From: a phage
Assembly (NCBI GenBank): GCA_012702815.1
Contig: GCA_012702815.1_3927.1
DNA length: 26,024 bases
Strand: one strand, 5' to 3'
In this document: piece by piece, positions 4,196 through 7,515 of the stretch
Numbering within the stretch: the stretch's first letter is position 1
Layout: each line of letters begins with the position of its first letter
The notes under the pieces: generated by a model
Told to the model about the DNA's origin: nothing
The model's input: the letters and a program-made list of their open reading frames with translations, nothing else
The model's database searches: none
Program-made: the position numbers and the translations under genes

Positions 4196-5273
4196 AGACG
4201 GCTCTTTTAACGTCTGGTCATGCGTTGCTGTAGGTGACAAAGTTATTACAACCTACGGTAAAGAAAATGGCAAGATGATGTTTGAAGAGTATACAGCAGA
4301 ACCTAAAAACATCGGTAAAAAGAATGAGCGTAACGCTGAACAGCAAGCTCTCTTTGAAGTTGCTGCAAAGTATAAAAAGCAGGTTGACCGCAAAGGTTAT
4401 GCTTACACAAAAGAGTCTGCACAGAATACCGAGAAGGTAGGTGTACAGCTTGCTCATGATGCTGCAAAGGTTAGCCATGCAAAGTATCTGAAGTTCCCTG
4501 CTGATGCTCAACCGAAACTTGATGGTGTCCGTTGTAGGATTTCAAGGCACTTGAGTATTGGCAGTGTATTTACAGCATATTCTCGTGAGAATACTGTTTA
4601 CAAAATCCCTACTGAACTAATACCTGACATTATGGCAATGTTAAGGCTCCACAAAGATGTTGATGAATTTGATGGAGAGATTTATGCTCATGGGTGGGAC
4701 TTAGAAGATATCGTCTCCATGATTAAAAATGAAGACAATCCTGACAGACACCTACTCAAGTTTTACTGGTATGATATCTGTGACAGTACTAAGACGTGGC
4801 CTGAGCGTAGAGATATTATTGAGACTTCACCATTGAATGACTTCAGAGACGGCTGTAAAGTTGTCCCTGTTAAGTCTCGTCGTGTTAACTCTTGGGAAGA
4901 GTTTGATGAAGCTCATGATAAGTGGGTTGAAGCTAAGTTTGAAGGTGCAATGTACCGTTCAATCTCTGAAGACTCCTTCTATGAGTGTTGTCACCGTTCG
5001 TACTTCTTGATTAAGCACAAGAAGATGCACACTGAAGAGTTTAAAGTGACTGGTGTCAAGACTGATAAACGTGGTCATGGCAAGTTCGTTGTAGAGACTC
5101 TTCCTAATGTCTTTGTAGATGTCTCATGGAAGACTACTCATGAGAAGAAACAGTATCTTGCTGAGCATCCTGAAGAGTTTATCGGGAAACCTTTAACGGT
5201 ACAGTTCCAGAAGATGACTCGCAAGGGGTCTTTGCAGTTCCCTGTTGGACTAGTTATTCGAGACTACGAATAA
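4170..5273 (+). CDS. ATP-dependent DNA ligase
   Basis: Adenylation motif I KLDGVR (Lys about residue 116) and downstream FDGEIY motif. RBS AGAGGTG before ATG 4170. About 100 aa of extra N-terminal sequence relative to the minimal T7-type ligase. Confidence 0.85.
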   Translation: MTTLYKQNKDGSFNVWSCVAVGDKVITTYGKENGKMMFEEYTAEPKNIGKKNERNAEQQALFEVAAKYKKQVDRKGYAYTKESAQNTEKVGVQLAHDAAKVSHAKYLKFPADAQPKLDGVRCRISRHLSIGSVFTAYSRENTVYKIPTELIPDIMAMLRLHKDVDEFDGEIYAHGWDLEDIVSMIKNEDNPDRHLLKFYWYDICDSTKTWPERRDIIETSPLNDFRDGCKVVPVKSRRVNSWEEFDEAHDKWVEAKFEGAMYRSISEDSFYECCHRSYFLIKHKKMHTEEFKVTGVKTDKRGHGKFVVETLPNVFVDVSWKTTHEKKQYLAEHPEEFIGKPLTVQFQKMTRKGSLQFPVGLVIRDYE

Positions 5274-5280
5274 AAAGTTG

Positions 5281-5308
5281 TTGACATAGAAAATTTGGTG
5301 AGTATACT
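5281..5308 (+). promoter_or_regulatory. sigma70-like promoter candidate (TTGACA - 16 nt - TATACT)
   Basis: TTGACA at 5281-5286 and TATACT at 5303-5308, in the intergenic region after the ligase gene; a 9-bp inverted repeat (5296-5304 / 5329-5337) flanks the -10 and predicted start site. Confidence 0.5.
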
Positions 5309-5341
5309 GAGCAGCATAAACCAACGGGTACTCACCAGCAT

Positions 5342-5500
5342 CACTTAAGAGTCTTTCTAAGAGGGTTTTTAAGTAATGTGATGTTTGGTTTGGTGTGGTC
5401 AGGTAATGTGATGTCTGGTTTAGTGCGGTGATGTGCGGTCCGGTAAGGTCCGGTGCGGTAAAGTGCGGGTAGTTAGTCTCAGCTACATTAAAATGAGACT
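5342..5500 (+). repeat. composite repeat module A1 (type-1 header + 19 phased pentamers + hairpin)
   Basis: Header CACTTAAGAGTCTTTCTAAGAGGGTTTTTAAGT (5342-5374); NGTNN pentamers in unbroken 5-nt phase 5377-5471; hairpin AGTCTCA / TGAGACT with loop GCTACATTAAAA (5475-5500), followed by TACC TTTTT. Confidence 0.8.
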
Positions 5501-5504
5501 TACC

Positions 5505-5633
5505 TTTTTAAAAGGTCTTTAAGAGGGTCTTTTAATAAGGTGCTGTATGGTAAGGTGATGTCTGGTGTGGTAGGGTGAGGTTAAGTGAGGTGAGGTATGG
5601 GTGGATGGTAGTAGCCACGTTAAAAATCTACCA
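5505..5633 (+). repeat. composite repeat module A2 (type-2 header + 12 phased pentamers + hairpin)
   Basis: Header TTTTTAAAAGGTCTTTAAGAGGGTCTTTTAATAAGGT (5505-5541); phased pentamers 5539-5598; hairpin TGGTAG / CTACCA with 16-nt loop TAGCCACGTTAAAAAT (5606-5633). A degenerate third header copy follows at about 5642-5668. Confidence 0.8.
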
Positions 5634-5690
5634 AGTTTCTAAAGAGTCTTCTGTTGAGGGTTCTTTACAAACAACTTAACAATCAACTAA

Positions 5691-6296
<606 letters not shown>

Positions 6297-6298
6297 TT

Positions 6299-6739
6299 AT
6301 GAATACAAAAGCATTAGCAGCAAAGTTTAGTTACGGTGACACTGTATCACACTCTGAGATGGACACCTTCTTAGGTATTGTGAAGCCAACTTATCAAGGT
6401 GACATTGTTAAGTACGAAGATGAAATGAAGGCTTATGCGCTTACACGTCTAAACCGACTTGAAAAGTTTATTGAAAAACTTCTTAAAGAAGAGAAGATTT
6501 ATCTGGTTGCTTCAATGGGTGTTGGTTATCGTGTGGTTGAACCTAAGCATCAAGCAACTATTGCAAAACGCAAAATGTCTGGTAAGATTGGTCGTGCTTT
6601 AAAGCAAGCCACTCAAGCGATTGAGAATGTGAACACTATGGCACTTAGTCATCAAGAACGTTCACGACTGATTGAACAGCAAAATCACTTAGCTGCTATG
6701 AAAGCTAATATTAACAAGCAACGCAGAAAACCTTTCTAA
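6299..6739 (+). CDS. hypothetical protein (second gene of repeat-bracketed cassette)
   Basis: Starts 2 nt after the upstream stop; followed by an intrinsic terminator at 6751-6773. Lys/Arg-rich C-terminus. Confidence 0.6.
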   Translation: MNTKALAAKFSYGDTVSHSEMDTFLGIVKPTYQGDIVKYEDEMKAYALTRLNRLEKFIEKLLKEEKIYLVASMGVGYRVVEPKHQATIAKRKMSGKIGRALKQATQAIENVNTMALSHQERSRLIEQQNHLAAMKANINKQRRKPF

Positions 6740-6750
6740 GTTGACTAGGT

Positions 6751-6773
6751 AGCCTCTTCGGAGGCTCCTTTTT
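6751..6773 (+). terminator. intrinsic terminator after the two-gene cassette
   Basis: Stem AGCCTC / GAGGCT with TTCG tetraloop (6751-6766), then CC and TTTTT (6769-6773). Confidence 0.6.
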
Positions 6774-6902
6774 AAAAGGTCTTTAAAGAGGGTCTTTTAA
6801 TAAGGTAAGGCACGGTTATGTCAGGTATGGTACGGTACGGTTAGGTAAGGTGAGGCGGAGTAAGGTATGGGTAGTTAATCGGAGCTACATTAAAATTCGA
6901 TT
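6769..6902 (+). repeat. composite repeat module B1 (type-2 header + phased pentamers + hairpin)
   Basis: Header matches A2 apart from a single 1-nt indel (6769-6806); pentamers 6804-6868; hairpin AATCGGA / TTCGATT with the same loop as A1, GCTACATTAAAA (6877-6902). Confidence 0.8.
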
Positions 6903-7040
6903 ACATCACTTAAGAGTCTTTTAAGAGGGTTTTTAAGTGAGGTGTGGCACGGTAATGTTAGGTAGGGTCAGGTCAGGTCAGGTGAGGTAAGGTAAGGTGA
7001 TGTATGGAAGGATGGCAGTAGCCTTATAAAAAATCTGCCA
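6903..7040 (+). repeat. composite repeat module B2 (type-1 header + phased pentamers + hairpin)
   Basis: Header matches A1 apart from a single 1-nt indel (6906-6938); pentamers about 6936-7005 including GGTCA x3; hairpin TGGCAG / CTGCCA with loop TAGCCTTATAAAAAAT (7013-7040). Confidence 0.8.
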
Positions 7041-7058
7041 AATAAGCTATAAAATCTG

Positions 7059-7093
7059 TTGACAAGTCAGGTGTTATAGCTTATTTTTATACT
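7059..7093 (+). promoter_or_regulatory. candidate promoter (TTGACAAG box - 23 nt - TATACT) inside a 9-bp inverted repeat
   Basis: TTGACAAG at 7059-7066, TATACT at 7088-7093; inverted repeat AAGCTATAA (7044-7052) / TTATAGCTT (7074-7082) brackets the TTGACA box. Confidence 0.35.
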
Positions 7094-7131
7094 CAATGTA
7101 ATACAAAATTTAATATAACTTTGAGGTCATT

Positions 7132-7515
7132 ATGAAAAAGATTTTATTAGCTGCTGCAATGGTTATGGCAATGAATTTACCAGTCAATGCAACAGAACTT
7201 CCAAATGTGGACTTATCAGGTGTTCCAGAAGACACTTGTCAGATTGTTAAAGGTGTTGCTTTGACTAATGGTGAGTTACTTAAACCAATCTCTGAAGAGT
7301 CTTTAACAGAGATGACTGATAAGGTAACTGACTATCAGTATCGTGTTCTTGCAGAGTATTTCCTGCAATCTGCAAATATTAAAGAGAAGCACCATGATGA
7401 TATTGATGTACAGGCCATGATTAACCATCGTATTCAGTTTAAAGAAGATTTGATGCAAAAAGCTATGTATGGTGTTGAGTATTTCTTAGAAAACAGAAGC
7501 TGCACAGGTATTTAA
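7132..7515 (+). CDS. putative secreted/periplasmic protein with Sec signal peptide
   Basis: N-terminus MKKILLAAAMVMAMNLPVNA-TE: basic n-region, hydrophobic core, AXA-like cleavage site VNA. RBS GAGGT upstream. Confidence 0.6.
   Translation: MKKILLAAAMVMAMNLPVNATELPNVDLSGVPEDTCQIVKGVALTNGELLKPISEESLTEMTDKVTDYQYRVLAEYFLQSANIKEKHHDDIDVQAMINHRIQFKEDLMQKAMYGVEYFLENRSCTGI

Follow-up and report, generated by a model that had tools for sequence, protein, structure and literature searches.

The four arrays of phased pentamers described here are almost certainly the vrRNA genes of a VIPR system, of type II and the SUSP1 clade, flanking two protein genes in a Felix O1-like phage. VIPR was first described in 2026 as a CRISPR-like, RNA-guided DNA silencer composed of Vipr, a small phage-encoded RAMP (Cas7-like) protein, an accessory protein (Vap), and vrRNAs of 9–16 YNNGG repeats in which a conserved GGY alternates with a hypervariable NN and the tract ends in an invariable 3' tail, a pseudoknot in the SUSP1 clade (bioRxiv 10.64898/2026.04.26.720920, 10.64898/2026.04.26.720927). 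Vipr forms a helical filament, one protomer per repeat, that sequesters GGY, and NN pairs with double-stranded DNA with one target base skipped per two, resulting in transcriptional repression (bioRxiv 10.64898/2026.04.26.720920, 10.64898/2026.04.26.720927). The feature is real, functionally important and already known since these preprints. Our identification draws on the periodic anatomy of the arrays, the RAMP fold of the neighboring protein, orthology with SUSP1, covariation in the 3' tails, and complementarity to satellite DNA with one base skipped. Potentially new are a chimeric 19-unit guide, a motif confined in its five copies to the locus, and vrRNA genes carried by satellites in which no vipr was detected; that all three jointly reach beyond the main text of the preprints is possible, if rather doubtful.

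The window, the whole stretch of 26,024 nucleotides that was analyzed, belongs to a Felix O1-like myovirus (Felixounavirus), and its locus is 99% identical to that of Escherichia phage vB_EcoM_ASO1B. Two pairs of arrays surround a two-gene cassette downstream of DNA ligase (Table 1). The plus-strand arrays hold GT at a strict 5-nt phase for 19, 12, 13 and 14 units. Exact GT-phase runs on this strand extend over 5373–5464 (19 units), 5540–5596 (12), 6815–6851 (8) and 6952–7003 (11), and admitting GC at the GT position renders arrays 3 and 4 unbroken at 13 and 14 units; the rare exceptions mentioned in the initial annotation correspond to three GGC units. The same annotation had reported strict phasing over about 58 units in four arrays, and this was borne out: phasing is far above that of 2000 dinucleotide-preserving shuffles per array, in which the longest run was 7 or fewer (mean 2.0–2.6). 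Autocorrelation of the GT indicator reached 0.56–0.72 at lags 5, 10 and 15 and was negative at every other lag, and the strongest Fourier period was 4.9 nt, with power 52–74 times the median. The first array had been counted as 18 in-phase pentamers from 5377; its phasing is as stated, and a 19th unit starts at 5372. The description of the strand as almost entirely G and T was too strong, with G+T at 67–79% and A at 16–25%. Phased GT runs were absent from the minus strand of the window, and a search of other dinucleotides and periods (2–8) across the window gave no run longer than 9. In the whole 89.5-kb ASO1B genome, the only phased arrays are these same four, all on the sense strand of neighboring genes.

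Table 1. Features of the VIPR locus in the window.
Feature	Position	Strand	Basis or remark
Sigma-70-type promoter, TTGACA-16-TATACT, upstream of first guide pair	5281..5308	+	11/12 consensus positions
Motif copy 1, upstream of vrRNA1	5351..5366	+	GTCTT-N(3-5)-GAGGGT
vrRNA1 repeat tract, 19 units	5372..5466	+	Phasing; composite guide
vrRNA1 tail, type A (S1 GTAG/CTAC, S2 AGTCTCA/TGAGACT, A-rich loop 3), then TACCTTTTT	5467..5500	+	Same as SUSP1 vrRNA tails
Motif copy 2, upstream of vrRNA2	5515..5528	+	GTCTT-N(3-5)-GAGGGT
vrRNA2 repeat tract, 12 units	5539..5598	+	Phasing; satellite match
vrRNA2 tail, type B (S1 GTGG/CCAC, S2 GGTAG/CTACC)	5599..5632	+	Identical to SUSP1 vrRNA1 tail
Motif copy 3, upstream of vipr coding sequence, no repeat tract after it	5646..5661	+	GTCTT-N(3-5)-GAGGGT
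vipr, 195-aa minimal RAMP protein, predicted to bind repeats	5709..6296	+	SUSP1 homology
vap1, 146-aa accessory protein	6299..6739	+	145/146 identical to SUSP1 YP_009199428
Intrinsic-terminator-like hairpin and T run, after vap1	6751..6775	+	Sequence pattern
Motif copy 4, upstream of vrRNA3	6779..6793	+	GTCTT-N(3-5)-GAGGGT
vrRNA3 repeat tract, 13 units (two GGC)	6804..6868	+	Phasing; satellite match
vrRNA3 tail, type A variant (S2 AATCGGA/TTCGATT)	6869..6902	+	Three S2 pairs changed in compensatory fashion relative to vrRNA1 tail
Motif copy 5, upstream of vrRNA4	6916..6930	+	GTCTT-N(3-5)-GAGGGT
vrRNA4 repeat tract, 14 units (one GGC)	6936..7005	+	Phasing; satellite match
vrRNA4 tail, type B variant (S1 AAGG/CCTT, S2 GGCAG/CTGCC)	7006..7039	+	Identical to SUSP1 vrRNA4 tail

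Within the repeat, conservation and variability are sharply partitioned. Of the 58 units, 42 have G at position 1, 10 have T and 6 have A; position 2 is invariably G (58/58); position 3 is always a pyrimidine (T in 55 units, C in 3); and positions 4 and 5, the NN of the published repeat, are near-random at 1.85 and 1.64 bits. This is the GGY/NN organization of the 9–16-unit vrRNAs with two deviations. The first base (G1) is U or A in 16/58 units, while the cryo-EM work describes specific G1 contacts, and vrRNA1 has 19 units, more than the published 9–16, relatives having 17–18. Across ten related Felix/SUSP-like genomes we collected 34 distinct guides, which fall into four tail types and differ in NN, as expected of hypervariable NN on a fixed scaffold and tail among close relatives; the number of guides on either side of the cassette also varies among relatives. 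In these clade guides the last unit is usually GGTAT and the first often AGTGA, both conserved and without pairing to the target. When the vrRNA2 region was folded, its repeat tract was no more structured than shuffles (z +1.0), which is expected of a guide yet uninformative by itself.

Every array is followed by a conserved 34-nt tail that we read as an H-type pseudoknot. For the type A tail, 11/11 pairs form across 10 variants, with compensatory changes at 3 pairs; for type B, comparison of vrRNA2 with vrRNA4 showed three compensatory changes and 100% pairing. Overall, pseudoknot pairs formed in 100% of cells compared with 24–44% in slid-partner controls. The 6 compensatory pair changes over both tail types represent few independent events and are of modest statistical weight.

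The 195-aa ORF of the cassette is 97.9% identical to the SUSP1 gene lying directly after SUSP1 vrRNA1 and has the attributes of Vipr: a mass of ~20 kDa, a single-RRM RAMP fold, a glycine-rich loop and a thumb. Nine of 10 contact residues named in the cryo-EM study are retained at the same numbers (H17, K33, E71, M72, R138, C173, D177, W178 and R179); the cryo-EM text names T175, and this position is V both here and in SUSP1. The preprints give no accession for Vipr or Vap1 (bioRxiv 10.64898/2026.04.26.720920, 10.64898/2026.04.26.720927), and from gene order, protein size and residue numbering we infer Vipr to be agp039 and Vap1 to be agp038. The second ORF, 99% identical to its SUSP1 counterpart, follows the candidate vipr at the position of vap1. 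In VIPR systems of this clade, the adjacent vap1 is predicted to encode a DNA-binding protein; a single-sequence model of the candidate Vap1 here had a pLDDT of 68, and its best Foldseek matches were winged-helix regulators at a non-significant E of 0.24 or worse, too weak for a fold assignment. PHROGs and Pfam searches with both ORFs returned only 'unknown function'. By sequence identity, the locus falls within the SUSP1 VIPR clade under the 90% criterion used in the preprints themselves.

The parallel with SUSP1 extends to the entire locus. Gene order is the same (ligase, promoter, vrRNA or vrRNAs, vipr, vap1, vrRNAs), the promoter, leader and four 3' pseudoknot tails are identical, the GGY/NN scaffold is shared, and in both cases the target class is an E. 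coli satellite with tape-measure and baseplate homologues, addressed under a 1-nt skip rule. The two loci differ in that SUSP1 is a Suspvirus whereas this phage is a Felixounavirus; in the arrangement of guides, one upstream and three downstream in SUSP1 versus two and two here; and in every NN guide sequence. One array here is a 19-unit apparent chimera of two guides. SUSP1 has been studied by sRNA-seq, co-purification, EMSA, GFP repression, phage defense assays and cryo-EM (bioRxiv 10.64898/2026.04.26.720920, 10.64898/2026.04.26.720927). Those experiments revealed SUSP1 vrRNAs as discrete ~100-nt RNAs that co-purify with Vipr and repress target transcription (bioRxiv 10.64898/2026.04.26.720920, 10.64898/2026.04.26.720927).

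Because the locus is near-identical to that of SUSP1, the steps set out in the preprints would be expected to operate in this phage. Each array would yield an RNA of ~100 nt comprising the repeat tract and 3' pseudoknot tail, on which the 195-aa Vipr, a minimal Cas7-like RAMP, would polymerize with one protomer per 5-nt repeat. Vipr would sequester and flip out G-G-Y and present two variable bases per repeat. The presented dinucleotides would pair with double-stranded DNA, the target skipping one base after every two (NNxNNx...), and the predicted gapped R-loop or triplex would block transcription.

The targets predicted for the guides lie in a chromosomal satellite of E. coli. A baseplate gene of the phage (19879–20679 in the window, after the tape-measure gene) has a counterpart of ~92% nucleotide identity in E. 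coli chromosomes, within an element of ~12 kb that encodes a serine recombinase, a tape-measure gene, a baseplate gene and small genes of unknown function. The satellite is present in 474–480 of 5426 complete E. coli genomes (~9%), with O157:H7 strain Rafaela_II and strain 20 among its carriers; it occupies either the interval separating yciI from tonB or a DUF72 gene adjacent to yecN, and IS elements frequently interrupt it. Homology between satellite (copies L127–L135) and phage concerns 19879–20679 and 20679–22907 (minus strand) of the window. We scanned nine satellite copies with their flanks (190 kb) with the NN strings of the window under the 1-nt skip rule, and the guides matched 83–95% of NN bases in satellite copies. 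The best site for vrRNA2 (20/24 NN, the first 10 units being perfect) was found at L132 +9913 and L134 +9769 in a ~710-nt gene, where the skipped base falls on codon position 3; its predicted target sequence is GCTATGAAAGAACTTGTTAGTGAATATGAATCACA. A first scan of four copies had yielded no target for vrRNA3; after five more copies were added, this guide matched a non-coding satellite stretch with 23/26 NN at L134 +5800 and 22/26 at L135 +5827 (predicted target AACTCTTAACAGATAACTACCTAGAAAGAAGGGAACGA). The site predicted for vrRNA4 (GATGCTACCAATTAAAGACAGCAACATGAAAAGATTGATTA) lies within a 110-aa gene (24/28 NN at L130 +7974, and 23/28 in four other copies).

The first array behaved differently, its two halves addressing separate sites. 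Units 1–10 of vrRNA1 matched 19/20 bases at L128 +9097, in the same ~710-nt gene family as the vrRNA2 target, and units 10–18 matched 18/18 bases on the minus strand of the satellite tape-measure gene in 4/9 satellite copies. Since the halves address two genes of the satellite, one on each strand, guide segments may be shuffled by recombination that stays in register with the GGY scaffold, and 9–10 matched units could suffice for guide function. In relatives, guides of 17–18 units are single and contiguous, that of KhF3 matching 32/36 bases and that of an IMG/VR Felix-like contig 30/34. An 18-unit array in locus L076 also looks bipartite.

The matches depend strongly on the skip rule. At a local score of at least 15, 29/34 clade guides found a target with a skip of 1, compared with 0, 0 and 1 of 34 with skips of 0, 2 and 3, respectively; order-shuffled guides reached this score in 1/204 cases. 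The 1-nt skip rule was thereby recovered independently from sequence alone, and putative targets were assigned to the guides of the window. We consider it very improbable that the vrRNAs, although bound by Vipr, serve mainly against host or phage genes, in self-regulation or host takeover, rather than against the satellite. Such a role is accommodated by a scan that covered the nine satellite loci and their flanks, by the match of vrRNA3 to a non-coding site, and by the skipped base, which falls at codon wobble in 2/4 coding targets and at positions 1 and 2 in the other two. Set against this, the satellite accounts for 57% of the scanned bases and holds all 102 clade-wide matches; the other 43%, ordinary E. 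coli chromosome, holds none. The phage's own genome gave local scores of 13 or less, the background level, and hence no sign of self-targeting. In addition, 18/20 SUSP1-clade guides were reported to target the same E. coli satellite (bioRxiv 10.64898/2026.04.26.720920, 10.64898/2026.04.26.720927). Most likely, then, the phage uses VIPR to shut down a parasite that, left unsilenced, would exploit it, because all four arrays specify satellite sites and the satellite carries homologues of the phage tape-measure and baseplate genes.

The satellite matches also bear on an earlier reading of the arrays as a decoy or sponge RNA, in which triplets at 2-nt spacing would soak up a TRAP-like, ring-shaped protein. 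The resemblance to the TRAP sites of the Bacillus trp leader is genuine, with one subunit per conserved triplet, 2-nt spacers and about a dozen repeats, and the tract has little structure of its own (z +1.0). The expectation of an oligomeric binder with one repeat per subunit has held, and the ring and the (G/U)AG triplet have not. TRAP is a closed 11-mer ring that recognizes (G/U)AG and controls an attenuator, whereas the VIPR effector is, in the preprints, an open helical RAMP filament on GGY; in the arrays, A never occurs at position 2 nor G at position 3. Moreover, the adjacent protein is a RAMP, 0/8 neighboring ORFs match TRAP or another RNA-binding Pfam family, and a sponge offers no reason for hypervariable NN that match satellite DNA under one skip rule. 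Information resides here in the spacers, not the triplets, and the preprints describe the RNA as a guide whose NN bases pair with DNA. We accordingly give the sponge hardly any credence, and a literature search on GU-rich repeats and sponges returned nothing relevant.

Equally negligible is a structural role as two-tetrad G-quadruplexes, a T7-type primase start cluster or origin, or an antisense Rho-loading site, as the initial annotation had also proposed: the arrays are 40–47% G, include some units with GTC and lie among replication genes, yet a G-quadruplex is not a conserved feature because GG is missing from 16/58 units and VIPR-linked relatives of the arrays elsewhere read TGTNN or AGTNN, GTC occurs in 9/58 units (C at position 4), nothing spoke for Rho loading, and pseudoknot covariation and skip-1 target matches are left unexplained by all of these. 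Candidate functions that were dropped, the adjacent ORF being a RAMP and NN matching satellite DNA, comprised an R-loop-forming origin, iterons for terminase or a partition protein, an autoregulatory operator in the style of gp32, an attenuator of TRAP type preceding a terminator, and template sites for primase (pppAC being templated by T4 GTT and T7 GTC alike).

A CRISPR array was likewise rejected, the unit here being 5 nt without long identical repeats, as opposed to repeats of ~24–40 nt with spacers of similar length. The closest mechanistic relatives among CRISPR systems are the effector backbones of Class 1 CRISPR-Cas, in which Cas7, Csm3 or Cmr4 assembles on crRNA with a 6-nt period and 5 pairing bases; the period here is 5 nt, with 2 pairing bases per protomer and one target base skipped. 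In further contrast to Class 1 systems, the locus is without a repeat-spacer array, adaptation genes, Cas5, Cas6 or a large subunit, is encoded by a phage, and has guides that are hard-wired genes. A search of the locus with all 4227 Rfam families (E up to 1) gave nothing above threshold and no CRISPR direct-repeat family, and a tRNA/tmRNA scan found none.

Expression signals of the locus are partly recognizable. The promoter upstream of the first guide pair is present with identical sequence at the same place upstream of SUSP1 vrRNA1. No recognizable sigma-70 promoter was found for vrRNA3 or vrRNA4, both of which lie after the terminator-like hairpin. The motif GTCTT-N(3-5)-GAGGGT occurs in 5 copies in the window versus 0.04 expected, and the whole ASO1B genome likewise contains 5 copies, all within the VIPR locus. 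One copy precedes each vrRNA tract at a distance of 6–11 nt. The motif, which is undiscussed in the main text of the VIPR preprints (bioRxiv 10.64898/2026.04.26.720920, 10.64898/2026.04.26.720927), may serve the system as a promoter of its own, mark a processing site or be an operator for Vap1.

Sequence searches recovered 259 phage records that match the 2-kb region (5200–7200 of the window), of which 109 cover at least 80% of it. A Vipr homologue is encoded in 132 phage records and is at least 90% identical in 118, making VIPR common in Felix O1-like therapeutic and typing phages. As judged from these comparisons, the cassette is accessory, with many Felix O1-like phages having no system or a reshaped one. 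The arrays go unmentioned in the Felix O1 genome paper, and GenBank labels them at most as terminators, 'repeat_region' or 'possible binding site of StbAB'. VIPR represents a newly reported mode of RNA-guided DNA recognition, with a gapped code built from 5-nt repeats, and has been proposed to be older than CRISPR. The window adds no new principle to it; what it supplies are concrete guide–target pairs for a phage–satellite conflict that involves ~9% of complete E. coli genomes. These are relevant to the annotation of such phages, whose arrays are now unannotated or called terminators, and to predicting phage performance on satellite-carrying hosts.

Beyond these phages, a scan of IMG/VR for ten phased GTs returned at least 120 loci. 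Among the loci listed, array flavors follow lineage (GGTNN, NGTTN, NGTCN, NGTGN, TGTNN and AGTNN), and many loci have several arrays. We built an HMM from single-clade homologues of the 195-aa ORF, and it matched at 54/86 of the listed degenerate-array loci and 1/34 of the microsatellite-like ones. Phased-GT arrays and the Vipr protein family travel together. In 19/54 of the listed loci with a Vipr, GT phasing runs on the strand that does not encode vipr (L016, L017, L021, L023, L034, L046, L050, L060, L067, L069, L072, L080, L092, L100, L104, L105, L117, L118 and L125). These loci have TGTNN, NGTGN and NGTCN flavors and are often tightly tandem with short conserved spacers, as in L100 with its 69-nt periods; they reflect either divergent transcription of guides or a different RNA repeat consensus in those VIPR types. 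The remaining 32/86 listed degenerate-array loci gave no Vipr-HMM match in the DNA scanned. Examples are L018, L078 and L120 (AGTNN, 17–18 units) and L051–L053 (GGTNN, on a contig of 190 kb over which at least 7 arrays are scattered). Such loci may have divergent Viprs, a vipr gene outside the flank, or orphan arrays.

Satellites themselves carry vrRNA-like arrays of 10–13 units, located on the minus strand at ~6873 in L127, ~5373 in L131 and ~5377 in L134. Their tails (GGGTGGATTGTCGTAGCCACGTTAAAAATCGAC) are akin to type B, and S2 GTCG/CGAC constitutes a further compensatory variant. A search of satellite ORFs with the Vipr HMM (E up to 1) gave no match. Because they have vrRNA genes of their own and no recognizable vipr, the satellites would have to depend on the Vipr of a helper phage for any function of these putative vrRNAs.

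A further observation concerns the record of Staphylococcus phage SA1 (GU169904.1, 147 kb), in which a vipr at 91679–92263 shares 99.5% identity with its E. coli phage counterpart. Annotations of ASO1B cite SA1 homologues for several Felix-like genes, and GU169904.1 gives the impression of a chimera or of contamination by a Felix O1-like phage.
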